Source: Nemertoderma westbladi (Eukaryota > Animalia > Xenacoelomorpha). From it: a DNA stretch of 64,000 bases. Under the pieces are notes generated by a model that had not been told where the DNA came from, made no database searches, and was given only the letters and a program-made list of their open reading frames with translations. Below are positions 8,031 to 58,085 of this stretch, piece by piece. The stretch spans positions 57,788 to 121,787 of the forward strand of contig JAUCBJ010004470.1 of assembly GCA_032718475.1 (NCBI GenBank), read 5' to 3'. A program made the position numbers and the translations under genes. Numbering within the stretch: the first letter of the stretch is position 1; each line of letters starts with the position of its first letter.

Positions 8031-8031
8031 C

Positions 8032-30300: not shown

Positions 30301-31509
30301 CTCCAACCGGAGTAGCGCCTGCGTCGTCGAATCGGAGACGGTCGCCATGATGTCATCGGAGTCCGGGAGCGGCAGGTCGGGGTCGACGGCGGACAGATAG
30401 CAGAGCAAGGCGAACCGACGAACGCGAAGGCGTTCCAATACCTCAACGGAGTCTCGGAGGCGTTTATAGTGAAGCCGCTGGCCGTCGGCTGCGATGTTAC
30501 CAGATATCTTTACCTCCCTATCGATCTCTGTCTCGATCTCCTTGGAATACCTCTGGAGACTCGATACCAGCTCCTTCGAGGAGCTCCTCTTTGAATCCTC
30601 CTCTTTGAATCTCTCCTTCACGTAGATTAACCCGCTGCCTCGGTTGATTATCCCTACTAAGTTAACGGCGTCTTCCTCCGAGGCGGTTTGTATAAAGTAA
30701 AGATCGCCGGTAGCGGCGCTAATAGAGATGATATTGGGCCGCTTCTTATACTGAGCCTCGGGATATGATAAACAGCTGGAAATGTCGATGGATACCTTCG
30801 CTTTTCCGCCGCCAACCAGCACGGTATTGCTCGCAAACTCGCTATCAACTGCATAAAACAACAATTTAGTGCCACTCAGTATCGACCAATACTTTTTCCA
30901 CGACCTTCGAATTTTTGAGGCCATCTCAAGTTTTTGTTTGTTGTTATTTAACAACAACAACTTAATGTTTAACCACCCCAAGACAACGGTACTTGCTTCG
31001 CTTTGCTGTTCCTCGGGAATTTCGACGCAGTTACTTGAGAGAGAAGGCCCGTTTGAGTTTAATTCCGCTTGCGGGATACCCAACCCCGTTATTGAGCAGG
31101 AAGAAGTGCCGGTGTCGTCGCCACCACTAGCACTGAAATCCGACGATGTCGGTCGACTGCACGCGCTGTCGCTACTCCGAGAGTTTCTGTTTGAGGACAT
31201 CATGCTGTCGGTGTCTATATCGCGGAAGTGAACGTGTTGGCGTATCATGTGCTGGGATGGGTTGAGCTCGTTGTTACTCCCCCTTTCGGGTGCCCCTCCA
31301 TGTTGGACCGTGTCATCCCCAGTGCCGTCGAGTCCCTCGTCTGAAGGACTCGCGAGCACCTGCGACCGCTTTGGGTGGGCATTCTGTAGGAAACTATCCG
31401 ATGCGTGACGCGAGATGTGGGGGACTGACAGTTCACCCTGGTAAAATATTACGTCTTCAATTTCAGAGCCACAAACAGGAGAAGTACTGGTATGACGAAT
31501 TCGATTCAT
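27340..31509 (-). CDS. TIAM1: TIAM1/still life-family Rac guanine nucleotide exchange factor (PH-CC-Ex, RBD, PDZ, DH-PH), uninterrupted ORF
   Basis: PH (RRSWKKYWSILSGTKLLFY), coiled coil, RBD (KIKLPHNQW..V.V..GMT..QLLE..C.KRQMD), PDZ (YGFSI, IYITDVKPNSVA..LGL.VEDEVL.I), DH (ELRDTEALYTKDL, SYLIKPIQRLLKYPLFL), second PH (CFVFRQAIVLL, FLWELIH). The true start could lie further upstream. Confidence 0.92.
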   Translation of the reverse strand: MNRIRHTSTSPVCGSEIEDVIFYQGELSVPHISRHASDSFLQNAHPKRSQVLASPSDEGLDGTGDDTVQHGGAPERGSNNELNPSQHMIRQHVHFRDIDTDSMMSSNRNSRSSDSACSRPTSSDFSASGGDDTGTSSCSITGLGIPQAELNSNGPSLSSNCVEIPEEQQSEASTVVLGWLNIKLLLLNNNKQKLEMASKIRRSWKKYWSILSGTKLLFYAVDSEFASNTVLVGGGKAKVSIDISSCLSYPEAQYKKRPNIISISAATGDLYFIQTASEEDAVNLVGIINRGSGLIYVKERFKEEDSKRSSSKELVSSLQRYSKEIETEIDREVKISGNIAADGQRLHYKRLRDSVEVLERLRVRRFALLCYLSAVDPDLPLPDSDDIMATVSDSTTQALLRLETSSVTALHSLASVRDHGGYDDALETDPSAGHAAPLSGTQERPPVVWDHVLSPNKLAKIKLPHNQWTVVKVASGMTSKQLLEKCCAKRQMDSKNFFLRVKVSNNSEEDGTHSIPGSQTLLEDLKCREVEVKEKLFRLVSLKKSPTDKAYGFSIQPHFELDANTSDNRLRIYITDVKPNSVALRLGLAVEDEVLAIGDKPVTGLDVLYIEEIMQRESLTLILKTSTLVGDDGGSLPLSAVARGVARVACGAEDDFPVGVTSQEVDVLLEDIDAVVDILESSVRPLAELPEPAQLPEPAQPPPPPLNGAGKAARILYELRDTEALYTKDLSRFLEVYLLPGAALLDLGDPSAHFASLSLALNELVAFHASFHENLTDIIGLEDSCSNYTELPQFDQLLFRLAIQFKEICTGEAMLSCYSKFCDVYTKNSVVFHSYKENPKLQDFLLSCNPTGQHDVSPDSYLIKPIQRLLKYPLFLRQLLHLVESAGNPEPRRSLLEALAALEGVAIGINDIQYINSNYADVFEELLGEQDEMVVERLASADLVMFGSVYWLNSNEDLGGGKSSKPARYPLLHCFVFRQAIVLLVKEERSKKKTGSAGNNKNLSIKFRRLIPINNVQTQDGVNVDIEKKFLWELIHTGKVRERSRTDKVYKLCSKDLKSKSNFMKAIRREIKDHRKSKQKSGRSASLTASGDVQSSNVCSHARIKKLNVSERVPRRSSLPAPPAADPRRLPIGGNISLCHPAVDERLRVEDDILEHLADNSMDLESMMLWTEALCGGAEPEEGGVSYYHPGYQYYAGYRDPSWPLEEDAAVDCSSSDNSLNSEGFASNSASSSPRNWSGPNPPVASWSTPHPVPPLWGEVPRSHHSDELYLLQENLLGREGECSTCGMLNGGSTGAPHHHHRESTSAPHHGEPLHHHRPGALETRVLANSTVSVSDRLDQLLHIDASYLYCSSIFDRSSEVILPEVPSPIARLFAENTSFPRSDKIRYE

Positions 31510-32126
31510 TGCGTAAACACATCTAGACTACTGGACTAGCTGTACTCAGGTACTGGCGATATGATGGAAACGGCGATAGCTTACAATGTTGTTGACAGAT
31601 ATTACTGGATTATGGCTGTATGGTGGGTCTATCAGGGTGTCTATTGTACTGTCTGACTGTGGGCGTGGGGCAGGGCAGTGCAGCAGTGGACTGGTGGGGT
31701 AGTACGCCTATAATGTATAGTATAATTATATAAGGATGTGTGCAAGCAGATGTTGAAATATACAGATATAGGCTATATAACATTTAAGGCATAGGCAGAT
31801 AGGCAGTCGGGGAGAAGTTCAAATTTCAACTGAGTTGAAATTTAAAACTTTTTATTTTAATTCAACTTTTAAGTTGTAAATACAACTCTAAAATAGCAGA
31901 GGCTCAGAAGGGCCCCAAGAATTATTATTATTATTATTGTTTTTATGGATGTAACTCGAAAAATTAACCCTCATTACCGATGGAATAAAAACTTTCACCG
32001 TCGGGTATACTTTTTTTTTAAAACATTTTATTTAAGTGATTACATTTGCAAATTAGCTGAAATACTACGGGAATTTATTAGATGTATGAAATTACCGCTG
32101 TTTGTCATAATTATTATACAATGGAA

Positions 32127-35100
32127 TACCGTCGTCTGGGGTGAAGTGAAACAAAATTGTTGGTTTTTTTTAATTTTCTCAAATACATAATACTCCATAC
32201 AGCCGATTTTGAGGTGTTCAACAGGGAATATTACTTATAAGTAATATCAGAATGGTAATACAGATAAATCTGTTATTTCTATAGAAAAAGACAGCAAAAA
32301 GATGCTGTTTTCCAACTTTTTTTAAAAAAAGTATTGCTGTTCCACTTCACCTCATGGGATGGGGTGGGGTCAAGTGGAACAGGAGTGAAAGGCAGAAAGT
32401 TTGGCAATAATTATATATATTTTCCACTTATTACAGGTTATGTATGGGGTGGAGTAGAACAAAAATAAATATTTTTAAAAAACTCAAAATTCAAAAAAAT
32501 TACAAAAAAATCTAAATTTAGACAATTTAACTTTAATATTTAATATTGCTGGCCAACAGGCCCTATCTATAGTAAACACTAACTATTGACACTGTTAAAA
32601 CGATATCGATACAGTGCCCACTGGTTGCAGGGTTGTATTAATTGTAAACATGTATATTGCATATGGGACATTATTGCATAAAGTTAAAAATATTGCAAAA
32701 TTTACTAAAACTAAAATTAACAAAAGTAAAAGCAAATAATTAGGATTAACGTTTAACAATATTGCATATAGTACAGAACATTGCAAAATTTACTAAAACT
32801 AAAAGTAAGAAAAGTAAAAGCATATAATTAGGATTGATGTTTAACAATATTGCAGTTTATATTACAGCTATTAAGCAACTTTCATTGTTACAGTTACTTA
32901 TTGCGGGTTTGGCTGGGTCTGACTAAAGCATACCAATATTATGGGTGTAAGCTGAGTGAATTGCCTTTTCTGTGGCTGAATCTACTTTGTATGAGTTTCT
33001 ACTGATAGTTGGAATAAGGAGATCACCATACATAATTCCCAGGATATTATTTAGTGGCACTTTTGCCTTCTCAGCAATTGATGGCCAGAACCAAAACTTA
33101 TGATTATCCCGTAGCACTTGAGCCATAAAAGACACTTCTATGTCACCAGACTGCTCACAGATACGACAACTTCGCCAACATACCAATCTCTATCGTAAAC
33201 AACAGCCACAACTATGCCGACCTTGAAATCCTCCAATGAATTGAATTTCTGAAGAGCAATATTTTCATATCCTTTGTATGGTTCATTACATTCAAACTCC
33301 ACTGGATCAGTGCTACCACTGTCAGAGATACTAGATTGGTCTTCATCATGTGAATCTTTACTTCCATCAGTACTACTATCTTCTTCTGACTCTGCTATAT
33401 CTTGGCTGTGAAAGACAGGGGGGTGTTCAATCGTCCCTTGACTCGGACCCACGTCATCAGTATCATCCACGTGCTGGAGGTCCCTAAGACCAATGCGTCT
33501 TCCTGGCGGAACTGTAAGCTTCTTCTTGCGCTTGCGTCTTGGGTTTATCCCCTGCTAGCCTAAGTTCTTGGAGAACTTGAACAAATGCCTGGTCCATATT
33601 GCTTTCAATGCCCGCGTTCACAGTGTGGGGCAGTCTTGCTAACACCTGATTCCTATCGAGTGGAAATATTCCTGTCTTTCGAAATCCTGCTATTAGTGAA
33701 GAATTATTCACAATAGCCTCACCTGGCTCCTTTCCTGGTATAGGAATAAAACTTGAGTCTTCTTCTTGGAGCCAGATTATTAGTTTCTTTAATAATTTCG
33801 GAAATTGGTCCTTTGGCAGTGATGCTTGCCTCTTTCCTTCAGGGCTTTCTTTGAATGTAGTCAACATGGCCCGCCACTTACGTTTAAGAGGACCAAAGAA
33901 TGACACATCTAAAGGGTGCATCAGGTGTGTTGAATTTGGTATAAGGCAGATTAATTTTATATTGTATTCAACGCATTTGCTTATGACCTCAGGAACTAAA
34001 TGGCTCGATAAGTTATCTCCAATCAGGGCTTTGGGGACATTTTTCGGAAATCGCTTAAAGTAAGGCAGTGCAATCGATGTGAACCAGTCATTGAAGCAAC
34101 AAGCATCAAACCATCCTGATTTTGATCTATTATAACGTGTATTGCGTAACCCTCCCTCCATCCACTGGTCCCATAAGTTTTCTGACTTATATACAACATA
34201 AACAGGTAACAGTGTTCCTGTTGCACTTCCAGCCATCATAATGGAAATCGCTGACTTGGAAGAATTAATGACTCTTTCTGGGTATTTCACTCCTCTTTTC
34301 ACAACAACCTTCTTACGCCCAGGATCATCTGTTAGATGCTTTCATCATAGTTGACGATTCTTTCCGGAGCTATACCATCTAAGGCTTGAGTAAGGTTGTC
34401 GAAATACTCGTTTACAGGTTTATGGCTGGAGCATCAATAGCCGCCCTAACTCTTTTTATATTTTGACAAAGGCGATTACTCAGCACCATCTTGTGACGAT
34501 GAAGAAATGACCTTCCCCACTCCACACCAGGAACATTGTTGCAGAACTTTTGTATAACACGACCCTGTCTGTCTAAATAGGCCTTTGCCATATATCGTAT
34601 ATCAAATAGGGTCATAGGGAATCCCCACCCTGCACAAATCAGGTACAAACTGCCATAAGACCCCTGTTGTTGTTTGTGCACTTTTCTATATATCGTCGCC
34701 TTCGGTATATGGAACTCCTGCTCTATCTCCCTATACTGCTACCGGTATATGTTTTCCCAGCCAACTTGGCTCGAACAGCCCTCTCAACATCTTGATCACG
34801 GTAATTGCGAAAAGTCTTGGTACCAGGTATGTGCTTGTAAAATCTGACCATGCTTGGATGGAATAGGCTAAAATTCAAAGATATATATCAGATACCTGCA
34901 GTTGTCAGAGTCTTGTTTATTCAAATCCAGATTATCAAATAATGGAGGATAATCAAATAATAAAATAATAAGGATTTTACTTATCGTGCTTATAATTAAA
35001 TGATTAATTTTAATGTTTTACTGTACTGTTGCCACATCCGGCGTAATAAACAAATATACAGATATATAAATTATCAAATAAAGCAAAATTAGAAGCCTAC

Positions 35101-35290
35101 TCTAGTCTAGAACCAAAGCCTAGCCTACCTGTGTAGGCATACGGCATACCAAGACATTCATGCTACCGGTACATAAGGCCTATGACTTAAGAAAAACAAA
35201 AGTAAACAAACCAAAGGATTATTGACAATGATGTAATGTTCCACTTCACAGCTTCACCCCTTTTTCTGTTTCACTTGACCTCACTTTAGA
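32127..35290 (-). mobile_element. pogo/Tigger-type (Tc1/mariner superfamily) DNA transposon, decayed
   Basis: One TIR-like end TA-ccgtcgtctggggtgaagtgaaaca at 32127. Repeated gttccacttcacc/ggggtcaagtggaac motifs near 32340-32460 and 35240-35285. The other TIR is not visible. Confidence 0.75.
32923..34851 (-). pseudogene. pogo-type transposase (HTH_psq, CENP-B HTH, DDE_1), frameshifted
   Basis: MVRFYK...start, WGFPMT.FDIR, W.RSFL.RH, IVNYDE, SKSAISIMMAGSATG.LLP.YVVYK, SKSGWFD..F.DWF, LIGDNLSSH, NSTHLMHPLDVSFFGPLKRKW, GFRKTGIFP. Confidence 0.9.
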
Positions 35291-35453
35291 AAACATACAT
35301 TTTAATAGATTTTACTTGGTAATTAAAGGTTTCCACCAAGTAAAAATCAAAGCAGTATAACATATGGTCAAGTAAAAATACATAGCATTGCAGCATTGTC
35401 ATCAGGTTACATATTTGGTTGTACCAGATGTAATTTTCAGAACTAAAATTTTA

Positions 35454-36391
35454 ACGGTCCGACGAATCTGTACAAAAAAGTACAATATAGTACAAAAGAG
35501 TACAATAAAGTGCAAAAATAGTACAAAAAGAGTGCAAAAATAGTACAAAACAGTACAAACGAGTGATAAACGTGTATACCAGTGTAGTATACACTACACT
35601 TGTATATAAATATAATTAATTGTAAGCAAATGCAACAGGACCGAAATATGCGCCGCTACAGTGTCAATCACTAGCGGCCTTGGTTCTGTGGTCAGTACGA
35701 AATAATTGACAGAACTTTGATTCATGTCGATTTTGACTGGCTTACAAGTAGAGATAGGCTACAGTCTGACAGTTCGTATAATAATATAATGTGTAATACA
35801 ATATACCTAATGCAATATACTATGCAGAGGGTACCGGTAGATAAAACTCCTCCTATAACTGAGACTCAAAATTTAGGTCATAGTCTTAAAGTAGGCTAGC
35901 CCATATACTGAAGGATAGACTGTATGCTACATTATGTAGGCTAGGTATGTCTGTCTGTATGTACACCTCTATCTGCAACTTTATTGAGTTCTCCCTCTGC
36001 AATTTTGCGTGCTTGGGACTGTTTTTTGTGTGTTTTGAACACAAAAGGCTGCATTAAAACTCATAAGATTGTATTGTAATAGGGGCACTCTCTGACTGCT
36101 AGACAGCTAGATCAGCCCCCGCTCAATGCATGCCTCGCCACACAAATCAGACAATGCTTTGTTTTATTTTGCACATTCTGACATTGTGTGCGCCCCTCTA
36201 AACGATTTGAACTACACTTGGATACACGTTTTGCAAGCATTCCTCACTCGTTTGTACTCTTTTGTACTATTTTTGCACTCTTTTGTACTATTTTTGCAAC
36301 TTATTGTACTCTTTCAGTCTTTTGTACTATCCACTATATTGTACTATTTTGTATTTTTTTGTACTTTTTTGTACAAATTCGTCGGACCCGT
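35454..36391. mobile_element. MITE/foldback with long TIRs built of gtacaaaa subrepeats
   Basis: acggtccgacgaatctgtacaaaaaagtac...agtgtagt versus actacac...gtactttttgtacaaattcgtcggacccgt. Confidence 0.75.
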
Positions 36392-36929
36392 CTCACACAC
36401 ATGGAAATCCATCTTGCTAATGATTGTTGTTCACTAACTGACTAATGGTGAGCCAATCGCAGTGTCTCGCCCCACACACCACAATACAATAGTCTTAGCA
36501 AAATTGTCTGCTCAATGACTGGGAGTCTATGGCTGTAAGAGGATCGTGAGTTTTTCATCGACTTATTCGCCCTCGCCCTATGCTGATGTGTTTCTGTTTA
36601 TGTACAAAATTTTCTTCCCGCTACGCTCGAGGTTTTTCTTTTTACTAGAATTGATTCATTTAAGGCCTAATCAATTTGTCAATCGCCATACTGGCTTAAA
36701 TAAGAATAACTACTGGCAAAAACTATACAGTAATAATGACTGACAGACTGAATGAGCATACAGTACAGGCAAAGGATGTGGAGTGCAACGGGCACAGGCA
36801 GACAGGCACCAGGGCACCTTATAGTTTATACTTATATTGGGCAGTCAGGCTCTACAGTCAGACGAGACAGGAGGTACGGTAGGCATGCAGTTCAAAATTT
36901 TACACATGCATTTTTTGTTGGCCAATAAA

Positions 36930-38365
36930 TTTTTCAGGCGTGCACAACAAATTTTTAAGGCGTGTACTGGTCAACCGTGCGTGCATTCTGCTGTTCTGGC
37001 ATCTGGCGTTACCGCATACCGGTCCCGCCTCTATGGAATCCATCCAAAAAGTGCGCCGGATAGCGCGCCGACCAATTTTTATGCGCGCCGCGCGCCGATG
37101 CCATTTCGAAGAAAAACCCTGCGGCTGCGCCACTAAATTTTTAAGCACGCCGATGCAATTTTGAAAAAAACCCGCGCCAACTAAATTTTTAAGCGCGCCA
37201 CACATTGAAACAATTTTGAAGAGCGCCATGCCAATGCAAATTCAATTTTGAAGGAGTGTAACCAATCTGTCAATGTCAGTCAGTCAGTACTGCTGTACCA
37301 GTCTGCCAGTCCCTGCTGCCCTATATAACAGTTGCCTAACCAGTGGTTAGGCAACTGTTGTAAACTTTCTTTTTCTGTTGTATGGTTCAATGGTTAGTAA
37401 CCACTGAACCATACAACAGAAAAAGAAAGGCGAGCGAAGCGAGCCGAAATTTTTAAACAGCTAATGCAATTTTTAAGGCACTTCCATAGCCTAACTGCCT
37501 AATTGTTAAACCTGTAAACTAACAAATCGGCGCCGGTTTTTATTTTTGGGAGCGCCACGGGCAGACGGGCCAAAGCCGGCGCGCTTTACGATTTTCGAGC
37601 GCGCCACGCGCCAAAGTCGGCGCGCTTTACGATTTTCGAGCGCGCCACGCGCCACATTGGCGCGCTTTTATTGCAAAGTGCGCCGGATTAATCCGGCGCA
37701 AAGTGTATGGATTCCAGTCTGGCTGGTCATTCAGGTGTGTACAACAAATTTTTCAGGCGTGCACTGGTGCGTGCACTTGCCAAACTCTGCTACCTGGCTT
37801 GAAGGTCAAGATAAATTAGTCCCAACTACATCTGTACATGTAGCCGTTCAAATGTCAAACAGTCAAATGAATGACCTATATTTTTAACAGTTTAACTACA
37901 TTAGGCCTACTGTACTATTCCTGTATTCTTCTGTCTTCGGTGTAAATTTTTTTGTTAAATTTTTAAATATACTGATAGCTGATAGGCCTATAGCGCTATA
38001 GGCCTAGTTTTTTATGTTTAATTAATTGTTGTACTACCGGTACCTGACTAAAGGTACGGCCTGTACTGCTGTATGGAATCCATCCAAAAAGTGCGCCGGA
38101 TAGCGCGCTGCGCACCGATGCAATTTCGAAGCCTCAAACCCCGCACCAACGAAATTGTTAAGCGCGCCGCACATAGAAACAATTTCGAAGGAGCGCCACG
38201 CCAATGTAATATCAATTTAGAAGGATTGTAACCAGTCTGCCATCTGCCAATGTCAGTACTGCTGTCAGGCTGTACCTGTCCCTGTACAGCAGTAACCATA
38301 CAACAGAAAAAAGAAAGGGAGGGAAGCGAGCCGAAATTTTTAAACAGTTAATGCAATTTTTAAGG
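36930..38365. repeat. Cluster of rearranged GC-rich dispersed repeat modules (gcgcgcc-rich)
   Basis: tatggaatccatccaaaaagtgcgccggatagcgcg at about 37032 and 38072; gcgagccgaaatttttaaacag at about 37439 and 38326; internal palindromes. Confidence 0.6.
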
Positions 38366-38697
38366 TAACCTATAGTTACTCTCAGTATCTTTTACATCTT
38401 GTAAAATATTATGAAATATTAAAAATAGCTCATTATCTTATTACTTATCCCTGAGTTGATGTGTGAATTTCGTAAATCCCACCAATAATATTTAGTATAT
38501 AAACCATTTACTCTGCAAAGTTTCTGCACTCTACAAATAGGATAAAATTTAGAAGAAGAATTCTTAACTCATCAATACATGATAGACAAGTCCTACATAT
38601 ATGACAATCAAATGGTTTTAAATAAGAATAACAACAACAACAATTTGTATTTATTAAAATATTAATAATATTTTAAATTATATACGAATTACATAAC

Positions 38698-39213
38698 TTA
38701 TTCACAAAATAATTTATAAACAATAGCAAATACAAATGGTTGAGTCATCGATACTATCTTACCAGTATGAAAAATACTAAAATATGATTTGTTTATGAAG
38801 CATCCTATACCGCAAAATAGTTCAGGGTTATAATCCAAATGAAAACTATCATTATTTATTTTAAAATTTCCACATTTCTGTAGACATTTTCTAAAGTCTA
38901 TTTTGTGAATTATGATACGAGTTTCAGATTTAGTTTTAAATTCGCTATTTTCAACCTGGCTGCCTGGTAAGGCTTTTGATATAATCAATTTGTAGAGGTA
39001 TATAACTGCATACATAATTGTTATAGCACCACATTCAGAAAACATAAAAGTTGCCTCTTGTATACAAAAAATTAACATTTTAGGTTTTGTTACCAAATGA
39101 CCACCTATTTGTTTAGATAACTGTATTAAATCTAGTTTTGAAGAGAAATTTGCAGAATATTGTCTATTAACAATTTGAATTAGCGTACTAGAACTCGCTT
39201 GTTTTTTCTTTCT
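38698..39213 (-). pseudogene. Divergent TATA-binding-protein (TBP-fold)-like gene inside a Polinton-like remnant
   Basis: The open frame extends upstream of the ORF call: IQIVNRQYSANFSSKLDLIQLS...TFMFSECGAITI...KIDFRK...DYNPELFCGI...FSIFHTGKIV. It resembles both TBP repeats (QNIVSTVNLGCKLDL; SYEPELFPGL...LIFVSGKVV). Confidence 0.65.
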
Positions 39214-39489
39214 TTAATGTTGTATTATCTGTTTTTTGAGTTTTTCTGGAAATATAATAAGTAGATTAATAATAATAATAATATATACTTAGTCTATATT
39301 AGTGGTTATTTATATTATCATTATCACTATCATTGTCACTATCACTATAATGGTTATGGTCATTGTCACCGTCATTGTTAACTGTTAATGTTGCTATTGT
39401 CATTGCTAATAGTGGTAGAATTTCCTTGTTGCTGCCCAAAAAAACAGTTGAGGAGCAATGGTTTTAAGTAAAATCGGTCTATTTAACTG

Positions 39490-42330
39490 TGTGATATGAT
39501 GTCGATAAGGATAACTGATATTTTCATCTTGCCACCATATTTTTGTTTCCCATAGTTTTAATGATTTTTGTGTATTCGAGCTGTTTTTACTTGATGTTTA
39601 TCGGATCTAAATGCATTAGTAAACCGAAACAGCTTAGTTTCATTATATTAGCAATCCAAATAATCTTGATGTGATATTTGTTTTGCTACAACACTTTTTG
39701 AAACACCTTTGCATGTATTTTTCTTAGGAGCATCATATGCTTCGAATGAGTATACCTTTGGTTTAAAAAAACCCAAGATTTGTAGAGTGAGCGTTTTGAT
39801 TCATCTTTCAAATAACCTAATGATGCTTTATGTATATAGTACAGTATATACAGGATGTGAAGTATCATAATTTGATGTATCTAGAAACCCACCTTTAAAC
39901 ATTGCTGTTAAGAATTTATCATGTTAAGTATTTGTTACACTAAGCATAAGACTATCAGTATCTCCACCATAAAGCTTGATTTAAAGTGACAGCTTCCTTA
40001 CAAAATGTATGCCCAGATAAATTTGGTGAAAATACAATAAATGACTCGTGGTTTGATTTAGCGAGCAATTTATCGCATTCTTCACTCGATGTTGCTAACC
40101 TAAAATTTATTCTATTACGTACTTTTTGCAAACATTTTCCATAAAGAGCATTATTAAATAGCTTATAGAACAACACTTCGAACGGGTTTTTTTGCAGATT
40201 GTAGCTTATTTTGTGTTAAAGGATATATAATCACTAAATATTTTACCCCTAAAAATTATGGATTTTTGTACTTTTGGGTCCAATTTTTAGGTAAAATTGC
40301 AACAATTTAATGTAAACCCCATATTCATATTTAGGGAATTGATGGAGTAAAAGCTTAGTTGATACATCATTATATTTTTTTAAAGAAACATCGTCTCTGA
40401 TGTTATAATGCTCCCACTGATTTTTCATATGTGGACTGAGAAGAGAAGATGGTACACTCATCTTCTCAGGACCCATGGGAATAGATATTTGAATCATTCA
40501 ATAGTTTAGTAGAAATGCCTGTGAATTTTAGAGCAGCATCATATGTTAAACCAGATGCTGTATATAAGTGTAATTGTTCTAGACCATAGTTTTTAAGGCA
40601 GAGTTGACAAAATTCTTCAAATATGTCAGTTAAGAGAGTAATATCGAGACATAGATAGCACATTAGATAGTCATAAATTGTTTGACATTGAAGCTCATCC
40701 CACGTTGTTAGAGCATGTTGGTAATCCCCTGTGGTATAATCGTATAGTTTAAGATCATTATAAAAGTCAACAATTGGAGGTAGTTGGGTTTCATGAAGGT
40801 TAGAAATATTTTGAATATAGCTATAGTAAAAAATGCAGTGCGTTTGTGATACGTTTTTGGAGAAATTTAGGGTCTGATGTTCCAGAATAGTCTCTATATC
40901 AGAGTAGATGCAGAAAGGAGGAGAAATAATTTTATTGAGTCTATTAAATTTTAGAGTTAGTTTGTCATCTGTAGGCATCTGTTCAACTTGTCGTCTAGCA
41001 GAATAGCAAAGGTTACGATATGTTTGTACAGCATTTAATGAATAATAAGGTCGCGTGCAATGCTAGCAGAAAAACAAACGATTATATGACCCTGTACTTA
41101 TGTTAAATATATGACCTAAATTTGATACTGCTGAAAACTGGCTTTACAACTATTAGCATTATCAACAAAAAGTAGAGTTAATACAGTTTTATTTAAGTAA
41201 TGATATTTGTCAGGTTGGCACAATGTTGTAACCGATTTTGTGTTTTCATGCCAGAGGAATATGTTTATACTGTACAATACTTAATATTATCTTTTTCAAA
41301 TTGACTGATACTTGTTTTTATATCTATTGGGAATGTGAGAGATGAAAAATTTATTTCATTAAGATATATATATAATATGGTGTAAAGGTTGATATTCTAG
41401 TTATACTTATATTATGTCTATTCCTTATCAATTTTATGTTGGAAGGCTGTAGCTAATACTGCATACTTAAAACATTGACCTAATGGACACTCGACATTTA
41501 TAGTATATGTTTTATTAGCTAAATATTTTGGAATGTTGCAGCCATGATCTTTAAAATATGCATTGCGATTAGAGGCAGAAATTTGAATATTTATCCTATC
41601 TATATGTACTATCCGCCAACCAGAACCCATATTAACAAAACTCACAACAAGCTCAACAAACTATCCTACTGACAGCCTTTTGGTAACAACGATCAAAGTC
41701 ATATTCTGATGAAATTTCATTAGTTTCCCCAGACGATTTGAAACAAAATGTTTCCATTTGAAGCCCTTCAATTTGTTCCCATTCTAAAATTAAAAAAATT
41801 GATATTCAAACTTTAATAAAAAAAAACCTAAAACTGGTCATATGTTGACTTACCCTCCCACCCTCCCACATGTGGCATTTTATCGTTTAATGTGTCTTCT
41901 ATATATAGATGAGTTGTTGTTAGTTTGTTTGAATATTCAAACAACCTGTTGTGTGCAGAGTTGCAATTTCCTCAAACTGGTTTGAGGTAGTAGAAGAAGG
42001 TCCAGCTCCAATTTGATTAGATGGTATTGATATATGGATTGAAGATGGAGATGCAGGTTGAAGAGTGTCTTTATTTTTAAGTTTGTGTGAGAACAATTGA
42101 GTATAACAAGAATGGTGTTTAAAGGCAGAGAGTGAAAGCCTCTCCACATTTACAGTCTGGTGTTTCATTAACAAACGTAAAGCCAGTTCCCCCTTCTTGG
42201 CAAACAGATAGATGATTCATGGCCCTTTTCTTTTCGGATGTGAAGATGTTGCAGTTGTCGCATTGATATTGTTTGAAGTGAGATCGGAGATTGGAGATGG
42301 CGATTGAGATTGTCAGATCTCATTTTCACA
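39490..42330 (-). pseudogene. Protein-primed family B DNA polymerase (Polinton/Maverick/adintovirus type), heavily decayed and internally deleted
   Basis: In order on the minus strand: Cys/His finger-like N-terminus, GSGW, N.....CFKYAVLA, PFCIYSDIET (Exo I), LPP...FYN.L, YL.LD..LL.DIFE.F...C...YGL, YTASGLTYDAALK, KLFNNALYGK, TDSL, GYLKDE. Ends approximate. Confidence 0.85.
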
Positions 42331-42649
42331 ACTAGGAAAAGCGATAATTTTTTAAGACATAGGTATTGTGGCTTTTTTAAGAGTTGAATTTTCGGTGTAA
42401 TAACTTTTCAGTAAACAGTGACAAATAATAATAAATTTGTAGTTGAGGTTTGAGTTTAGTTATTGATGCAGAATAACTTGGTTGAGATTGAAGTAAAGAC
42501 TTGAAAGTTATGAATATTTGAGTGTGAGTTGTTGATGAATAATTCAAGTATGATCATATTAAATTATGTAAAATAAATTAATGCACACGATTTCTACTGA
42601 AGTTAAGTTGAATGCAAAAAGTTGTGGTGATGTTTTATTATTATAGTAT

Positions 42650-44210
42650 ATGGTCCCATATGTCCCATATAGGGTGTTTATGTCCCATACAGGGAGTTTT
42701 TGTCCCAAATAGCATGTAACATTCTCAAAATGATTTTACATAGTTTATAAATATAATGAAATACTCTAAGAAAATAGAATCCACTATCATAGCTTTAATT
42801 TAAATTTGTCCCGTTGTTTCTGTCCCATATAGGGTGTTTGTGTGCCAAATAGCGCATGACTTTCTCAAAATGATTTCACATAGTTTATAAATATAATGGA
42901 ATACTCAAAATAAAATATAATTCACTATCATAGCTTTAATTTAAATTTGTCCCAAATAGGTTGTTTGTGTCCCATATAGGCTGTTTGTGTCCCGTATAGG
43001 GTGTGAAGTGCTTATAATGATTTCAAATAGTTTCGAAATGTAATGGAATACTCAAAAGAATATAGAATTCATTCACTATCATAGCTTTCATTTAAATCTG
43101 TCCCAAATAGGTTGTTTGTGTCCCATATAGGGTGTTTGTGTCCCATATAGGGTGTTTGTGTCCCAAATAGCGTGTGACTTTCTCAAAATGATTTTAAATA
43201 TTTCTAAATCTCATGGAATACTCAAAAGAATATAGAATTCACTACCATAGCTTTAATTTTAATTTGTCCCAAATAGGTTGTTTTTGTCCCATATAGGGTG
43301 TTTGAGTCCCGTATAGGGTGTGAATTGCTTATAATGATTTTAAATAGTTTCGAAATGTAATGGAATACTCAAAAGAATATAGAATTCACTACCATAGCTT
43401 TATGTTCAATTTGTCCCAAATAGGTTGTTTTTGTCCCATATAGGTTGATTTTTGTGCCAAATAGCGTATGACTTTCTCAAAATGATTTTAAATAGTTTCT
43501 AAATATAATGGAATACTCAAAAGAAAATATAATTCACTATCACAACTTTAATTTAAATTTGTCCCAAATAGGTTGTTTGTGTCCCATATAGGTTGTTTGT
43601 GTCCCATATAGGGTGTGAAGTGCTTATAATGATTTCAAATAGTTTCGAAATGTAATGGAATACTCAAAAGAATATAGAATTCACTATCATAGCTTTCATT
43701 TAAATCTGTCCCAAATAGGTTGTTTTGTGTCCCATATAGGTGTTTTTGTTCCATATAGAGTGTTTGTGTCCCAAATAGCGTGTGACTTTCTCAAAATGAT
43801 TTTAAATACTTTCTAAATCTCATGGAATATTCAAAAGAATATAGAATTCACTACCATAGCTTTAATTTCAATTTGTCACAAATAGGTTGTTTTTGTCCAA
43901 TATAGGGTGTTTGAGTCCCGTATAGGGTTAAATAGTTTCTAAATGTAATGGAATACTCAAAAGAATATAGAATTCACTATCATAGCTTTCATTTAAATCT
44001 GTCCCAAATAGGTTGTTTGTGTCCCATATAGGGTGTTTGTGTTCTTATATAGAGTGTTTGTGTCCCAAATAGCGTGTGACTTTCTCAAAATGATTTTAAA
44101 TAGTTTCTAAATCTCATGGAATACTCAAAAGAATATAGATTCACTACCATAGCTTTAATTTTAATTTGTCCCAAATAGGTTGTTTTTGTCCCATATAGGG
44201 TGTTTGACTG
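42650..44210. repeat. Satellite of about 140-167-bp units, each with 20-bp subrepeats (tgtcccatatagggtgtttg)
   Basis: About 10 units of tgtcccaaataggttg...ggaatactcaaaagaatatagaattcactatcatagcttt; two subtypes are interspersed. Confidence 0.95.
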
Positions 44211-44211
44211 T

Positions 44212-45050
44212 ACCTTGACGAACTCCGTTCGTTAACATAAATGACTAGGAGTGGAAGCTGTTCCAGCGGACGCAACATGTTTGATTACTATAGATCCATA
44301 GCAGGGTTCGTAAGAAAAAAGGAGAAAACCCCTTCTTAATAAGTTCCAGAAATAGCTTGCACCATTCAACCATATCGAAGGCTTTCGATAGATCGAGAAG
44401 ACATCCAAATACAGGAGTTGCGTTTCTCGAATAGAAACCGAGAACCTCTGTAGCCGCCCAGGTACATTGGGACGTACTGGAACCACTTTGGAACCCGAAT
44501 TGCAACTCATCCAAATGTAAGCACTCAGCCTGCGAGATCTGCATGACCCACTCAAACAACTTAATCAGGAGGGAGGATAAAGCAATAGCCCTGTAATTAC
44601 TGGAAAGGGAATCGTCACCTAATTTATATTTTATCAAAGGAATAATGACACACGTCAGTAAGAACTGTGCAACAAAGCCATGAATGAGAAAACTGTTGAA
44701 CAAAACACTTAAATGTGAACATAATTCTCGAGGACCATTGATCAGGCAATCAGAATCAAAAGTTACGTCTGTTTTAGAGCTTTTTAGCCTACAGTATGTA
44801 GACCTTCACTGACCAAATCCCGAGTGATATTGCGGGAAATCAGCTGAATCACATCCTTCAAGTTTATCGGAAATCTGCGATCTTAAGAATTCTAAATCGG
44901 AATCATACGGTTGATTATATAGGTCTGAATATATACTGGCGAATCGGTCGGCTATCGATTGTGGGTCTGTACAACCATCAATGGTCGAAGTCACAGTGTT
45001 CGGTGTGGATCTAAGTTTCTTTATTTCTTTAAATATATCACTATTATTCC
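44212..45050 (-). mobile_element. CR1/L2-group LINE RT fragment
   Basis: IIPLIK...SSNYRAIALSS...LQFGFQ...ST...CLLDLSKAFDMV...C.VRWN...NGVRQG. Confidence 0.85.
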
Positions 45051-46779
45051 TTAATTTTCTTCCTTAACGAACGCAACGAGGCACAAGAAGAGGACGAGTA
45101 TTGTGTTGAAGACTTCTGACTAACGGCAGACAACTCGTTAATGGTAGCCATATGCTAAAGGCTTTGCTCACTTCGTGCTGTGCGAAGACCCCACGAACGT
45201 GTTTATTGGTGTATACGTTATTCGCATCGTACTTGGAATGACCCTACTGTATTGGTGAGATAGTACAATTGTACTAGTGAATATCAGAACAATATACTGT
45301 ACATTGTAAGTTAAACCAATCATTCTTATTCATGACACTACCTCTGGGGTCTTCTACATACGGTATCCTCGACTGGTAAAATCCGACGGCAGGTTCCCTG
45401 AACGAAACCGGAGGTCTAGTGGGAAGGGAGGTCGATATTCAGCTAGCGGAACACTCAGGAATCGGATACGACATTCTCACCACACATGACGGAATTCCCT
45501 TACAAGTATGAACGGTATGTTCTTACGTAAACGTACAGTATACTCACAACTAATCTATTGCGTGCATTCAGAAACACATTGTTCATTCCTCATTATAGCT
45601 CTGTAACAACAAATAGCAGAACATACAGTAATTAAGTACTGTATAATGCACGGTAGGCTAATTAAGCTACAGTATTACACGCATAATTAGCGTTGTTATG
45701 TTGTTTTATATTAAAGCAATGATGATAATTGTAATTGTAATGTAATGAGTGTAATTGTTGCATGTTATTTATCAACGTGTCTACAATGATTACCCATAAT
45801 GCGTGGAACAAAACCAATGTAACATTACGAATGCAGCTGTGGATTGCGCAACAGTCTAATTCCTCTTTATATATACGTACTGCAATAGAATGCTAGACTT
45901 TACTGTTAAGTTAAGTAAAGTTTTAAAAGTTAAGTTATATAAAATTAAAGTTATAGGTGGACCAAGGACGTGAGACGCGAAAACAGGAGACAAATTGAAG
46001 GGCTCTTTTCTCATGGCTGTTATTTGCAAGGCATCAGACCGCCACAATAACTCCCAAGGTTGAACACCCCATAACTATCCAACCCTTTCTTTACTCCCCC
46101 AGCAGAAGCCAGGTTCCCATTGTCCGGCAGATATATCTTTATTACTGTACACCATGCATGACCCATAATATACTGTAGCGTCACTTTCTGATAATACGGA
46201 CCCCCCCCCCCCCCCCCCCCTCCACCCCCCAATTTCTACAAATCGTATCACATTCCGTGAAATTTGCCGTCGAGGATCCCTTGAAGCTGGAATTTTCAAT
46301 TTTGTTTTGAAATTTTTTTTTAAGCATTCAAGCTAAATAGAAAAGTGTCTTTTGCGAAATCACAACATTCGTATCACTGCCATGCAAATTATATTTATAT
46401 TCATTATTCAATTTAATAAAATTATAACTGTATGTATAAACGTATTTAATAATTCTATACTAGGTGTTGGGGAAATTTTGAGCAGTCCAGTACCTTTAAT
46501 AGGGCTAAACTTAAGTTACTGTAGGTCCGTTTCCGGTACACCACACAGTACAGTAGGTATCCATCACTTATTTTACAGAGTTGTTACCGTAGCGTAGCGA
46601 ATAAAGAATTTAGCAATAAACAAAGCGGCCCACGGAGGGAAAACAACCCAGATTGGCAACCCAAGAACAACAATGGTTGATTTGGTCGGTACCAAATGTA
46701 AAGGAATTAATATCACCCATTAAACCACACGGGAAGCTTAGGTGCAATGTACCGTAGGATCCCCGTGTAACATACAGAG

Positions 46780-46975
46780 AAAGGCCAGGTTTGGCAGCTG
46801 TACATTAATCAGCTGACTCAGACCCTGAGCCAATCAGAGCCTCAGCTGTGGAGCCCAGTAATGTAGATATTGGATAGATACAATCATAAATAAGAATGGT
46901 GCAAGTCTGACTCCCAGGAGGGCTCCCAATAACACTTTGAATGGTTCTGTTTCACCATCAACAGTAGACAAAAAT
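46780..46975 (-). mobile_element. RTE LINE fragment, downstream half of the copy split by the BEL element
   Basis: STVDGETEPFKVLLGALLGVRLAPFLFMIV continues the RTE sequence at 58806-59320 across the insertion. Confidence 0.75.
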
Positions 46976-47639
46976 TGAGATGGGATCGGAGATCCTGACC
47001 GGGTTAGAAATGTACGCGTCACCGTTCTGCTGGGCAGTCGTGCTAGTTGCTTTGGCCGAAGGCCGTTGGGGAAAACAATAAGAGTTTCTGTTGTTTCTCA
47101 ATATTGATTAACGTAAACGATAATAGCATGTCGGTAGTGATACAGTTGTAATAGCAGAAAAATACAGATTAATTGCTCTTACTGGCGGTGACGGTCATTA
47201 ACTATGACCGGTCTGCACTGACTGGATAACTGAATCAACTGACCGGTAAATCAGTAATGTAGGATAATATATGGTTAACACACATGGATATTGATTTCAC
47301 CTCTTACTGTACTTTGGCCCTCTGTACCCAATGGATGCTTTCCTATCTCTAATCACGTGCTTCCCTCCCCACTATTGGCTAATATACTAATTGTCACTTT
47401 GGCACTCCCTGTGAGTGTTTCCCCCTGCTGCTAGCCTCTACTAGCTGTATTCCCTCCGAGGTGGTTTAACCTCTCACCTCTCTCTGTGGCTTTGGGACTT
47501 GTGTCGCCCCCCCCCCCTCCCCCAAATGTTGGTTATGAGACGAGATTAATATTGGTAATCTCATATCCCCAACATATTGCTAAAATGCCACTGGTCCCAT
47601 TTTGTGGTGGGTAATGAAGCAGAATTGAATCCGCTTACA
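46976..47639 (-). repeat. 3' LTR of the BEL/Pao element
   Basis: Direct repeat of 58145-58805; element sense TGTAA...TCTCA. Confidence 0.93.
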
Positions 47640-47650
47640 CTCCCCCCCAT
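47640..47650 (-). promoter_or_regulatory. Polypurine tract
   Basis: Minus strand ATGGGGGGGAG directly abutting the LTR TG. Confidence 0.85.
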
Positions 47651-47682
47651 GCTATCTTCCCGGTGAGAAGATAGCATTAACC

Positions 47683-48860
47683 TTAAGTGCCGTAATCCTC
47701 CCCCCTTATGTCCGCCTCTCTCTCGTCTGCTTCCCTCCTTTCTCGCCTGGCAACTTCTTCCAGATGCTTGTCCTCGACTCTATCTGCTTCTAGCTTCTCC
47801 CATCTCTTGTATGGTGTATCCACCTCTCTGTCTACTAGGTGCCGGCTGTTGTAGTACACCGACTCACCCTTCAGCTCCAGGTGGTCTACCAGACCTTTGA
47901 AGGCCACCTTAAATGCTCTTCTGTAGTTTAGAGGTGCTCCTGATAGCAGAATCGCCGTTGGCTCTCTTCTGATAACCACGGCCATGAATAGGTTTAGTAA
48001 ACCTATCATTATCCATCCTCCTGTAGAATATATCTCTTCTGATATATCTTTATCGCTCCTCTTCGGAACTGATACACCTCCGGTTTCCCTGGCCTCGCTC
48101 CCCACTTCAGCGAGTTCGCCAGCTCCACTCTGTACTCCTCCCGGAATTTACCCCAGTCCATTGGCTTGTGGCAGACGAGCCCCATGAGCTGACCCATCGC
48201 CACTGCTCTGCAATGTCCTGTGTTCTCTACCAATCCCAACCTGTCTGGCCCTGTCATTGCCATGTAGACCGCTTACATGTCCAGGATGTTGGGGGTCTCC
48301 AGTCCGACGATCCTCTCCGCATCGTCGCGGATCACCAATCCCACCTTTACCGTAGTCTTCTCCCTTACTAGGTCCTGCACCGCCCTTGGCAACCGGTTTA
48401 AATTAGGCCCGCTCTTCTTCCCGTAGTTTCCTAGATTGAATAGAAAGATTTCTCCATTTGGCGCTGCCAAAAGCAGTAGTATGGTTCTAGCCGATCCCGC
48501 CGACCCTCTTCTCGAGCCCTCGTCATCCTCCACAGTCCCCTCGTCATCTAGGACCACGTATCCGCCCCTATTCACAGACTCTACAAACCTCCTCCAGTCC
48601 TTTCTCGGTGGTTCCCTCGGATACTTCGGTATCCCAAACTTCGCTTCGTCTCCCTTCACTACATAGCGAAAATGGTCGAGGATCGCGTTATCCAGCAACG
48701 GTGTCCCGTAGGTCCCGACCAGTCATCTCTCGTGCATCTCCCTTAAGTGGTCCTGCAGCGCTCGCGCTTTGTGACCCTTTGCTAGTGGCTTGTAGTATCC
48801 CCTTGTCTTCTCTTCCGGATGCCTAGTATCTCCTTTCCACTCCTCTCCGTCTTTCTCATC
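47683..48860 (-). pseudogene. Extra ORF of the BEL element: DEDDy 3'-5' exonuclease (WRN/EXD/mut-7/RNase D-like), with in-frame stops and a 1-nt deletion
   Basis: Exo I YVVLDDEG; ILLLLAAPNGEIFLFNL; LPRAVQDLVREKTTVKVGLVIRDDAERI (Exo II); NILDM. Exo III YQKRYILQ(D) is restored by one T insertion near 48018, which also joins the frame ending at 47683. Start position approximate. Confidence 0.8.
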
Positions 48861-49522
48861 TTAACTAGTCTCTCCGCCATTACGAACTTCCTCGCTCGCT
48901 CACCTTCTTGGTGGTGCCTTACCAAAGGCTCAAGTAGATGAGTGACGTTTAGTAAGATGGTCTGTGTTAGTTCAGTAATGGCCTATCCCTTATGAATCCT
49001 AATTTGTACTATATTTTTACCTATATGTACCCCAAAGTGCCAACTTTTCCTAAATTTCCAAAATCTGTCCATTACTTTAGTTATAATTCTAGAATCCTCT
49101 ACCTACTGTTACAATAATTTGTCAGATTTTACTTCTAATACTATTTTATTCTCTGCTAGTGTGCTATTATCGGTTATGGCGGGTTATTTTTACTTAGATA
49201 ACCCCTATAGTTTGTATACAGGGAAAACTAGCTATTCTCTACTGTGCTACTTTCGTACCAGGCAACCTCCTGGCCCTGTATCAAACACCCTAAACTTACT
49301 CTATGGGACGTGCAGTACAGTAGTCTGTCTCGTGCGGCCTACATGTTCTATCCTGCTGTACCCACGTGCCCCCCTCTCCCTTTCGTGGTGCTCTCAATGT
49401 CCACAACCTCTACGGTACTACGTACCCTACTATTACTCTTATGGTATATCTATATACCATACTCTCTACTCTCTTACTACTAACTTTTACTAACTCTACG
49501 AACTCTAACTTCTAACTCTAAT

Positions 49523-49995
49523 GGTACTATGTACCCTGCCACTACTCTCGTGGTATGTTTATATACCACACTCCCTAACATCTAACTGCCTACGGTACTA
49601 TGTACCCTACTACTCTCGTGGTATGTCAATATACCACACTCCCTAACTTCTAACTGCCTACGGTACTATGTACCCTGCTACTCTCATGGTATGTCAATAT
49701 ACCACACTCCCTAACTTCTAACTGCCTACGGTACTATGTACCCTACTACTCTCGTGGTATGTCAATATACCACACTCCCTAACTTCTAACTGCCTACGGT
49801 ACTATGTACCCTGCTACTCTCATGGTATGTCAATATACCACACTCCCTAACTTCTAACTGCCTACGGTACTATGTACCCTACTACTCTCATGGTATGTCA
49901 ATATACCACACTCCCAAACTTCTAACTGCCTATGGTACTATGTACCCTACTACTCTCATGGTACGACAATGTACCACACTCCCTAACTTCTAACT
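49523..49995. repeat. 68-bp tandem array (about 7 copies), two hairpins per unit, inside the BEL element
   Basis: Unit ggtactatgtaccctactactctcgtggtatgtcaatataccacactccctaacttctaactgcctac; starts at 49594, 49662 and 49730 give the 68-bp period. Confidence 0.95.
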
Positions 49996-50076
49996 ACTTA
50001 CTTAGTGCTACATACTATCTATTACTAATACTTTCTAACTTTCTACTAACTCACTTCTTATTTTATTATTTGTTTA

Positions 50077-56000: not shown

Positions 56001-58085
56001 CCCCCCCCCATCCGCCACCTCTTACTTCGCTACCTCCTACTTCGCTTCTAAGCCCCTCTCTAGTCGACGCACTATCTCTACTCCGACTGGGTCTACTCAC
56101 CCCCGCCTCTTCCTGTGTGACTGCATGGCCTTGCAGGCTCACGTCGGGTTGACTCACCCCCGCTACTCCCTGCCTAACTACGTGGCCTTGCAGGTTCCCG
56201 TCGGGTTCACTCACCCCCACTACTCCCTGCGTAACTATGTGGCCTTGCAGGCTCTCGCTGGTCGGACCACCTGTCTCCCCTACGTTCATATTAATTGCAC
56301 CGTTATTCATAATGTTATTTTGATTAATTTCTCCGGGGTTATTATCTGACGCAACATTATTATCTAAGTTATTTAAATTGCTTAAATTATTTTGTTCAGA
56401 ATTAGGGCTATTATTTGGAATATTCTGCACATTTAAATTAGAATTATTTGGATTATTTTGCACGTTTAAATGAGTATTATTTGGATTATTTTGTACGTTT
56501 AAATTAGTATTATTTGGATTATTTTGCACATTTAAATCAAAATTATTATTACCGGGTAAAATATTATTTCCTGCAACAAAGGTCTGATTAGGGTTGTCTA
56601 CTACGGTACTATTAATATTAATTCCTTCTAACGTATTATTATTACCCCCACCCCCCAGTCCTTTGGTATTTTACACCAAGTAAAACCCAAGTTTACACCA
56701 GTCCTGGGTCTGTTGTCCGGTGCCTGTAAGTGGGGTGTTAACAAACGTTTCCATTACTTCTGGCTCCTCGTAAACACTACCCGAACGAGCCTCACTCTCC
56801 GATAATCCCAACTTCGCCAGTTCCAACCGGCGCTTTTGCTTCGCCTGGTATTGCATAAGCCCTGGGTATGCATATCATCCCGCATACGCTTTCCCGCTCT
56901 CTCTCTCCCTCTATCCTCTCTCAAACTTTGGTCGGCCAACTCTGCCTCTCTTGCAATCCTCTCAACCCTCCTCGCCTCACGATCCTTGCGCTCATTCGTT
57001 TCCCTCTCAATTATTTCAGCCTCTCGCATCTTATGCTCGCTTTCCAGTCTTGCCTACCGCTCCTCGCGCTCTTTGCAATCGCTTGTCTCTCTCGACTCTC
57101 GCTCTCTGCCCTCCCTCATTTCTCTCTCCTCACCCTCTCTAAAGTTTAGCGCCACCCTCTCGGCTCCCTCTTTACACTCTCTCACTAAATCTCTCTTTCT
57201 CTAATAACGCGGTTCCCTTGTCCAGTTGCCTCTCCAGCTCCTTCTGATCTAGCGCCACAAGGTCTAATTGACACACCAGATATATCTCTAACACCCTTCT
57301 TGCTTCTGCGGTTTATGTAGCGGACTTATCGGTCGCAACGGACTCCCATCGCTTCTCTGTCCTACTGATTTTCCCCCACTTTCTGGGGTTCTCACTGACC
57401 GACGACACCGAATCCTTGGGGTTAACCTCGGGTTCACCGTCGTGCGGGTCCGCCAAACCCACTAACTTAATTCCCCTAGCATCCACTAAGTAAGGCCCTA
57501 CGTACACTACCTCTGGCTCCATTACCCCAGATCGCCACAATTCAAACAGTTCCGTGGCGACCCCCTCGCTCTCTCACTCGCCAGTTCTCCCTGTCCAAAA
57601 CGGACTAAATAGCAAAAGTGTTTATTTGACTCACCTAGCCTCAGGTATAGTTTAGGCTGGTCTACCTTTTTCCCTTCCTTGGCCTCCTTAAGTAGTTTCT
57701 TGGTGGTGTTGTAGGCCCGTCGTAGCCGATCACTCGTCCCGACATCCTCTTCGCTGACTCCGCCTCCTCTCCTCATCCAGCGTCGTACCGGCGGCCTCAC
57801 CATCGCCGTTCCGGTGTGCCGTCCGTCGCCCTCAGCCTGTGTCAGGCCGGCGACTTCGGTATTCCGACCGCCGTCGTCGTCGCGCGTCGACTTGTCTCCC
57901 TCTCTCCTTCGTAGTTGACGGCCGCCCTCCGCTTGGGCTACCGGATCGTCCCTCGTCGGCGAATCTGGCATGGCTGGCCAATACCATCGCGTTGCGGCCT
58001 CACGGATCATTTGGTTGGTGTCGCCCGGGGTCCGCGGCGGCGTCCTCTCTCCCTCTGATAATCGGGGCGTTCTTTCTTCTGCCAT
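50077..58085 (-). pseudogene. BEL/Pao gag-pol polyprotein, disrupted
   Basis: Long charged/Asn-rich gag; AWRAL..EYG.P; protease LVDSGA; P.AILTPFGWMLSGP; RT YYVPLH, R.VVDASAK..G.SLND.L..GP, FYVDD; YDPLGLASP; RNase H LHMFSDAS..AYGA, LELTS, WTDS.VVL.W, NPADLLSRG; integrase HHCC, GVDMFGP, IYSDNGTNFVGA, INSRPL, LTPGHFL, W..W..EYL..L..R.KW. Confidence 0.95.

Follow-up and report, generated by a model that had tools for sequence, protein, structure and literature searches.

Whether a mobile element of the Polinton type can carry its own TATA-binding protein (TBP) is the question raised by a locus in the genome of the xenacoelomorph Nemertoderma westbladi. The locus (38698–42330) lies within a window of 64,000 nucleotides (assembly GCA_032718475.1, contig JAUCBJ010004470.1, positions 57,788 to 121,787 of the forward strand), the whole stretch of DNA that was analysed and whose numbering is used throughout. 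On its minus strand, the locus holds the remains of a protein-primed type B DNA polymerase gene (pPolB), followed by a short TBP-like reading frame. To our knowledge, the timing of gene expression in Polintons/Mavericks is unexplained and basal transcription factors are not thought to be part of their cargo. We read the locus as a genuine case, though dead and incomplete, of a Polinton-type element whose cargo probably included a divergent TBP-like gene. Its most fitting explanation, which we consider probable, is that a dead, internally deleted Polinton-type pPolB and a damaged TBP-like cargo gene derive from the same multi-copy element, the TBP-like protein being predicted to act as a late-promoter factor.

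The polymerase remnant

The pPolB remnant extends on the minus strand from 41666 to 39561 and is split into five pieces; it contains 16 stops in all, and two large blocks are missing from its interior. All motifs quoted in a sequence-only reading of this DNA were found in the minus-strand translations, GSGW at about 41620, YSDIET at about 40900, KLFNNALYGK at about 40150, TDS (as DTDS) at about 39970 and GYLKDE at about 39810. A motif scan of viral contigs yielded 25 loci with polymerases of 1160–1380 residues, which are collinear with the window remnant, and a pPolB profile was built from 13 of them. The N-terminal piece with GSGW (41250–41666) matched profile positions 216–342 with 30 bits and contains 5 stops, and the piece with a Cys/His motif and YSDIET (40856–41131) matched positions 375–466 with 33 bits and 1 stop. 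The exonuclease-III region (40478–40837) was the best preserved, with 105 bits over positions 680–799, no stops and 30–47% identity to relatives. It is followed by the KLFNNALYGK piece (39970–40479; positions 902–1066, 79 bits, 5 stops) and by the C-terminal piece with DTDS and GYLKDE (39561–39995; positions 1091–1232, 57 bits, 5 stops), the C-terminal motif of which extends by eye to about 39490. With five collinear profile matches of 30–105 bits, the identification as a Polinton-type pPolB is firm at the sequence level.

About 210 residues are absent after the YSDIET piece and about 100 residues before the KLFNNALYGK piece. The latter gap covers the site of what we take to be polymerase motif A in the closest relative. 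The pPolB gene of the window is dead. A decayed pPolB had been claimed from the sequence alone, and the five profile pieces bear this out with the correction that two large internal blocks are missing.

Single pPolB pieces used as queries in word-based searches returned no relatives, while these were later found by motif pattern and alignment searches, which indicates that word-based searches are insensitive to decayed queries. In the alignment search, 600 of about 2500 matching stretches were examined and the best 80 kept. Since the top identity among these was only 47%, over a 110-residue piece, a close relative of this polymerase was not found.

A Cys/His zinc-finger-like, Ser/Pro-rich remnant was seen by eye at 41945–42330 on the same strand, with weak scores (E 0.03–0.4; independent E 0.43; E 0.036), and probably derives from the N-terminus of the polymerase or from a small gene upstream. 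Past the end of the polymerase and ahead of the TBP-like frame, a short Asp/Asn-rich stretch looks coding (39300–39410, minus strand); it may have been an acidic tail of the polymerase, or else be what is left of a tiny gene.

A TBP-like frame downstream of the polymerase

The TBP-like reading frame (38698–39213, minus strand) is located about 0.3 kb downstream of the pPolB end in the same orientation, as the sequence-only reading had proposed. It counts 171 codons from stop to stop, with the first Met at residue 46, and the chance of an open frame of this length at the local base composition is about 2×10−7. Pfam family PF00352 (TBP) was the sole family matched at E up to 1 (21.6 bits, E 1.9×10−4), and NCBIfam gave a weak match, also to TBP (E 0.054). 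A sequence search of the PDB at E up to 10 returned three matches, all of them TBPs (E 0.3–0.4). In the ESM Atlas, TBP accounted for 28 of 30 matches to the whole frame (best 0.94, with a low recognition value of 1811) and for 22 of 30 matches to residues 6–85 alone (best 0.91). Nucleocytoviricota clusters were among the neighbours.

Further TBP profiles were built from TBP-like genes fetched from viral contigs. With such a profile the frame scored 16.5 bits versus a maximum of 9.9 bits in shuffled sequences (1725 scored of 2000), and it aligned over positions 5–166 of 193, spanning two tandem repeats. Among 31,022 chunks from the window and from 111 related pPolB loci, the frame was the top match to the TBP profile. 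The score of its C-terminal half was reached by none of 3000 shuffles and that of its N-terminal half by 20 of 3000. These comparisons show a modest likeness to TBP that is above chance and to which both halves contribute, the N-terminal one more weakly.

In pairwise comparison the frame was closest to a TBP of eukaryote-like type encoded on a viral contig (43% over 54 residues), which would fit a decayed processed pseudogene of the host's own TBP or a TBP-related factor. However, the high identity to eukaryotic TBP expected from such an origin was not seen: the frame is 14–25% identical to 12 aligned TBPs, and no human, yeast or plant TBP was matched in the PDB at E up to 10. Neutral decay to this extent is moreover incompatible with a 171-codon open frame, or with the variants 8–13% apart that are described below. 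A host pseudogene is therefore very improbable, and the earlier judgement that the frame is too divergent for host TBP or TRF2 holds.

The first TBP-like repeat (about residues 11–80; 38974–39183) keeps the Asn of strand 1 (N16) and the helix-1 pattern, and alone gave no Pfam TBP match. The second (about residues 97–171; 38701–38925) contains Y128-N-P-E131-L-F133-C-G135 and I-F148-H-T-G151-K152. In the alignment with 12 TBPs, the frame keeps N16, Y128, P130, E131, F133, G135, F148, G151 and K152, and of the eight columns that are invariant among these 13 sequences, seven are classic TBP positions. The roles of the four Phe, the two Asn, the Pro and the acidic residues of TBP in DNA binding and TFIIB contact are described in the available part of PMC12529657. 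Of the DNA-kinking Phe residues, F133 and F148 are present, and in this copy, which is damaged, the first-repeat pair does not fall in the columns where it would be expected. The Asn that starts a repeat is present in the first (N16) and absent from the second, where it would fall within a stretch in which variants differ by indels. Cys134 replaces the Pro after the first Phe, and Asn replaces the first acidic stirrup residue.

The middle third of the frame fits TBP poorly. When a sliding-window profile test was run over three frames, a score above 1 bit was obtained only in the called frame. A start of the second repeat in a neighbouring frame at about 38.95 kb, seen by eye, had no score support and was rejected.

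A structure search against TBP, as suggested earlier, did place TBP on top. [quoted passage not shown] As the model predicted from the single sequence is unreliable, folding gives no independent support.

Sequence variants and condition of this copy

Four sequencing runs from one organism and three studies contain the stretch or part of it, none of them recorded as RNA; runs X1 and X2 gave nearly identical contigs and are possibly not independent. In one run, the contigs covering 38700–39240 resolved the 5′ part into three or more variants, one of which is exact. Two 5′ variants differ from the window copy at 13 of 161 and 15 of 113 letters (8–13% apart), and variants of the 3′ end at 10 of 80 and 4 of 70 letters. 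Frame-changing indels set the variants apart close to the 5′ end, within the middle third and close to the 3′ end. Such divergence would be unusual between alleles and speaks for paralogous copies of a repeat, with the restriction that depth does not equal copy number and that animals may be pooled.

The substitutions were classed for 40 listed differences, 13 further ones being outside the count. In the part with the motifs, five of the six differences classed are silent and fall on third positions (binomial p 0.018, for a segment picked post hoc), a faint sign of selection before this copy died. The middle of the frame may be out of register in the window copy.

The TBP-like frame of the window is best seen as a pseudogene, a damaged copy. 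It is not an intact gene because there is no Met before residue 46, the middle part matches poorly and variants carry indels. The frame of roughly 170 residues with both halves of a TBP fold that had been read from the sequence is indeed there, with 171 codons and two TBP-like halves, but not as an intact gene. With a polymerase lacking motif A and no start codon ahead of the first TBP repeat, the window copy is inactive today.

Probable linkage of the two genes

One element quite likely carried both the pPolB and the TBP-like gene, given their location on the same strand at a spacing of 0.3 kb, their even composition and their similar decay. The G+C content is 27–31% throughout the remnant, compared to 45% and 41% in the two flanks. 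On one side, the remnant is bounded by a tandem array (42661–44207; period 147, 10.3 copies, 20-base subunits, 31% G+C), which is a candidate subterminal repeat of the element. A fragment of reverse transcriptase from a non-LTR (long terminal repeat) retroelement (44245–44805, minus strand; PF00078, E 2.5×10−6) breaks off at the very point where the array sets in; this fragment belongs to the flank outside the element. The array could be the terminal or subterminal repeat of the element or an independent satellite. A GC-richer, partly duplicated repeat of about 0.9–1.0 kb forms the left border of the remnant (36900–38370) and holds a palindrome with 32-base arms (37365–37429) and a 41-base tandem.

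The related pPolB loci number 111 and total 874 kb; in 56 of them the sequence runs on for 900 bases or more past the end of the polymerase, and in 30 for 5 kb or more. A cluster of rve integrases was present in 47 of these loci and a cluster of A32/IVa2-type ATPases in 29, a Polinton-like setting. As to the Alpha or Beta class, PF03175 was found in one of four relatives and an endonuclease VII-like domain in two of four.

Other Polinton-type loci contain, as cargo, a VLTF3-like late transcription factor (L118:5426–6085), a PC4-like protein (L146:13550–13933) and a matrixin protease (L131:948–1592). The first of these shows that some Polinton-type elements bear a different viral transcription factor. 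A eukaryote-like two-repeat TBP was seen on a viral contig of 29.5 kb (L066:9841–10446, minus strand); no polymerase of this class was found within the 20 kb of that contig that were examined.

Results against the explanation and alternative origins

Several results weigh against a Polinton-type element with its own TBP. To begin with the frame itself, its Pfam score of 21.6 bits is below the curated gathering cut-off of PF00352 (22.9 bits), so that from its sequence it is classed as TBP-like and not as a member of this family. The canonical Phe pair and a clear Y-x-P-E-x-F stirrup are absent from the first repeat. The fold predicted from the single sequence is all-helical, with a pLDDT of 40. 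No close relative of the protein was present among 5.8 billion proteins, also when residues 118–160 were tried, nor in viral and metagenome contigs. Among 1.84 billion representative proteins the sole match was a repetitive protein (P0002), which was rejected as a chance match. A search for the Pfam TBP family in virus records matched none of nine.

The low Pfam score, an Atlas recognition value below the level of known families and the all-helical model could together mean that there is no homology to TBP at all, the motifs being a chance match in an unrelated gene of the element. That model is, however, unreliable. Both halves of the frame separately indicate TBP, and seven of the eight columns invariant in the alignment with 12 TBPs are at classic TBP positions. 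We give this possibility hardly any weight.

The variants contribute three further points. The likeness of one variant contig drops below 80% at 39229, just upstream of the frame; this contig continues for about 1 kb toward the polymerase side, while the other variants track the window to the end of the stretch compared (38700–39240). In the middle part of the frame, 5 of 7 differences are at third positions of a different frame and only 2 are silent, and the third-position excess of the motif part is absent from the other three segments.

The remaining points concern the linkage. Low G+C is widespread in the window, with 33% or less in 14 of the 64 one-kb bins; the AT-richness shared by the two genes, noted earlier as a similarity between them, is real but not distinctive. 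A TBP-like stretch was found in none of the 111 related pPolB loci with two profiles for which the window served as positive control, and Pfam TBP in none of 126 neighbour proteins (of 224 cluster representatives). TBP therefore does not belong to the general gene set that accompanies this class of polymerase; at most it is the cargo of some lineages. A linkage of pPolB and TBP was not seen at these related loci; as these relatives are distant, the result does not refute a linkage at the present locus. The window itself gave no match to any of 31 profiles made from genes that recur next to the related polymerases (integrase, ATPase, protease, putative capsids and others), though divergent capsids could escape such profiles. 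The profile of the retrovirus-like integrase, also derived from the related loci, matched nothing in the window. Terminal inverted repeats were not found, either as an inverted pair around the remnant in 30000–50000 or by self-BLAST, and a target-site duplication, another hallmark of Polintons, was not found at the remnant. In view of the absence of integrase, other Polinton genes and terminal repeats, the locus is named a Polinton-type remnant and not a full member. The proposed Polinton lineage with its own basal factor stands as far as the pPolB, the TBP likeness and the variants are concerned, and lacks the capsid and integrase genes that were expected with it.

On these grounds the two genes could be chance neighbours, the TBP-like gene stemming from another multi-copy element or from a large DNA virus of the nimavirus, nucleocytoplasmic large DNA virus (NCLDV) or mirusvirus type. 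The window is repeat-rich and packed with remnants of unrelated mobile elements, and TBP genes are frequent in large DNA viruses (PMC10132985, in its accessible part). The blank in the 111 loci, the variant that diverges just upstream of the frame and the common low G+C point in the same direction. On the other hand, the tight, co-oriented spacing shows no evident junction, and composition and decay are alike on both sides. No other large-virus gene was seen among frames of at least 140 residues, inspected by eye and for part of them with Pfam, and the bare two-repeat size differs from viral TBP-domain frames of 570 and 950 residues. Chance neighbourhood is accordingly rated as quite unlikely.

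Possible function of the TBP-like protein

If the pPolB and the TBP-like gene do belong to one element, a role in transcription can be predicted from the known chemistry of TBP. The protein of a living element would form the two-repeat saddle, in which the second repeat with F133 and F148 could kink and bend AT-rich DNA, and the acidic stirrup residue E131 could touch host TFIIB. An altered sequence preference is predicted from the first repeat and from the replacement of Pro by Cys at position 134. Such a TBP would bind a TATA-like box of the element and recruit RNA polymerase II (Pol II) of the host to its late genes. Polinton-type elements encode no RNA polymerase, and the simplest use of a TBP would consequently be to mark promoters of the element for host Pol II. 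A role in a switch from early to late genes, suggested by analogy with the herpesvirus TBP mimics, is in our assessment about as likely as not; no late genes survive at this locus. Of variant TATA boxes in the window, TATAAAC occurs 19 times, TATAAGA 14 times and ATAAAC 65 times; these occurrences are tied to no surviving gene start and are uninformative.

The gene could also belong to the element and encode a decoy or modulator of host transcription, acting on TFIIB, TAFs, NC2 or Mot1 or by binding the terminal repeats. Such a protein might do without the canonical Phe pair in its first repeat and would retain the stirrup of the second, which is the best-preserved part here. Other cargo for host control, namely Bcl2, IAP and Rb-binding proteins, is borne by adintoviruses according to the accessible part of PMC8502044. 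Yet DNA-facing residues are kept, namely F133 and F148 in the second repeat and N16 in the first, and the losses in the first repeat may reflect decay, since variants differ there. A decoy is unlikely, and a late-promoter factor remains the role we prefer.

A wider interpretation of the late-promoter factor is more tentative and falls somewhat short of an even chance. The locus would be the fossil of a lineage of animal Polinton viruses of 15–20 kb with the smallest known self-encoded transcription switch, a single bare, re-tooled TBP that acts through a private TATA-like box, TFIIB and host Pol II on late genes and that arose independently of the herpesvirus mimics. The lack of a detectable close relative would then point to fast co-evolution of protein and box.

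If true, a TBP of their own would give Polintons/Mavericks a testable early/late switch; it would also offer naturally occurring TBPs that prefer other sequences, and might have been a step on the way to the transcription machinery of larger DNA viruses. With a dead and partial copy, the window itself mainly widens the host range and shows the extent of TBP divergence.

Comparison with known viral and cellular systems

The pPolB remnant resembles animal Polintons/Mavericks, or adintoviruses (PMC8502044), in being collinear with polymerases of about 1250–1380 residues from loci that hold an rve integrase and a packaging ATPase. Degraded endogenous copies of adintoviruses occur in animals, as reported in the available part of Starrett et al. 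2021 (PMC8502044). Unlike these viruses, the window contains no integrase, ATPase, protease, capsid or terminal repeat. The readable labels of the animal adintovirus maps (Fig. S2 of PMC8502044) do not include TBP. The label "TBP" is, however, printed in the legend of Fig. 5 of the same paper, among mid-size DNA viruses and related elements under non-animal datasets. The earlier statement that TBP is not among the standard Polinton genes is in line with its absence from all 111 loci, and is qualified by this label; the combination of pPolB and TBP is, to judge from that legend, not wholly unrecorded. A full-text search whose reach excluded Repbase and most subscription journals turned up no description of a TBP from an animal Polinton. 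Two classes of pPolB are described in PMC10748475, in the accessible text of which the word "transcription" is absent.

With cellular TBP (PF00352), the frame shares the two-repeat layout, the size, N16, Y128-x-P130-E131-x-F133-x-G135 and F148-x-x-G151-K152. It differs in having no extension at either end, no stirrup and Phe pair in the first repeat and no Asn in the second, and in the Pro to Cys replacement.

The working model is taken from the herpesvirus TBP mimics, ORF24 of Kaposi's sarcoma-associated herpesvirus, BcRF1 of Epstein-Barr virus and UL87 of human cytomegalovirus (PMC12529657, accessible part), where a divergent viral TBP domain directs host Pol II to late promoters. BcRF1 was at rank 42 of the (biased) fold search with the alignment-guided model. 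According to the available part of the same paper, these mimics are large multi-domain proteins that work as part of a complex of six proteins; they contact Pol II directly, and the acidic contacts to TFIIB are missing from them. The window frame, in contrast, is a bare core of 171 codons that keeps one acidic stirrup residue, and none of the five viral partner genes of such a complex was found in the window.

NCLDV and mirusviruses have an RNA polymerase of their own and genomes of hundreds of kb. Their TBPs, like those of nimavirus-type and archaeal viruses, resemble the window frame as divergent, virus-borne forms. A Polinton-type element has no RNA polymerase, and its TBP would need host Pol II. 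For mirusviruses, TBP is listed as a core gene in the accessible part of PMC10132985.

Other features of the window

A further element, about 930 bases long and MITE- (miniature inverted-repeat transposable element) or foldback-like, is present at 35456–36388 and has long inverted arms of 10-base subrepeats. A fragment of a DDE_1 (pogo-like) transposase lies at 33484–34341 on the minus strand. A broken LTR retrotransposon, presumably BEL/Pao-like judging by eye, occupies 50077–56670 on the minus strand, with a 68-base tandem array at 49432–50000.

Three long open frames of another kind were observed. The frame of 302 codons at 14105–15013 (plus strand) is by eye of the membrane glycosyltransferase type and gave no notable Pfam match. 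A CPEB-type protein with two RRMs and a ZZ domain is encoded at 8014–9822 (plus strand) by a single frame of 602 codons. Likewise, a Rho guanine nucleotide exchange factor of the Tiam/Still-life type (PH, CC-Ex, RBD, PDZ, DH, PH) is encoded at 27340–31527 (minus strand) by a single frame of 1395 codons. Genes of this type are usually rich in introns, and the uninterrupted frame speaks for a genome poor in introns or for a retrogene.

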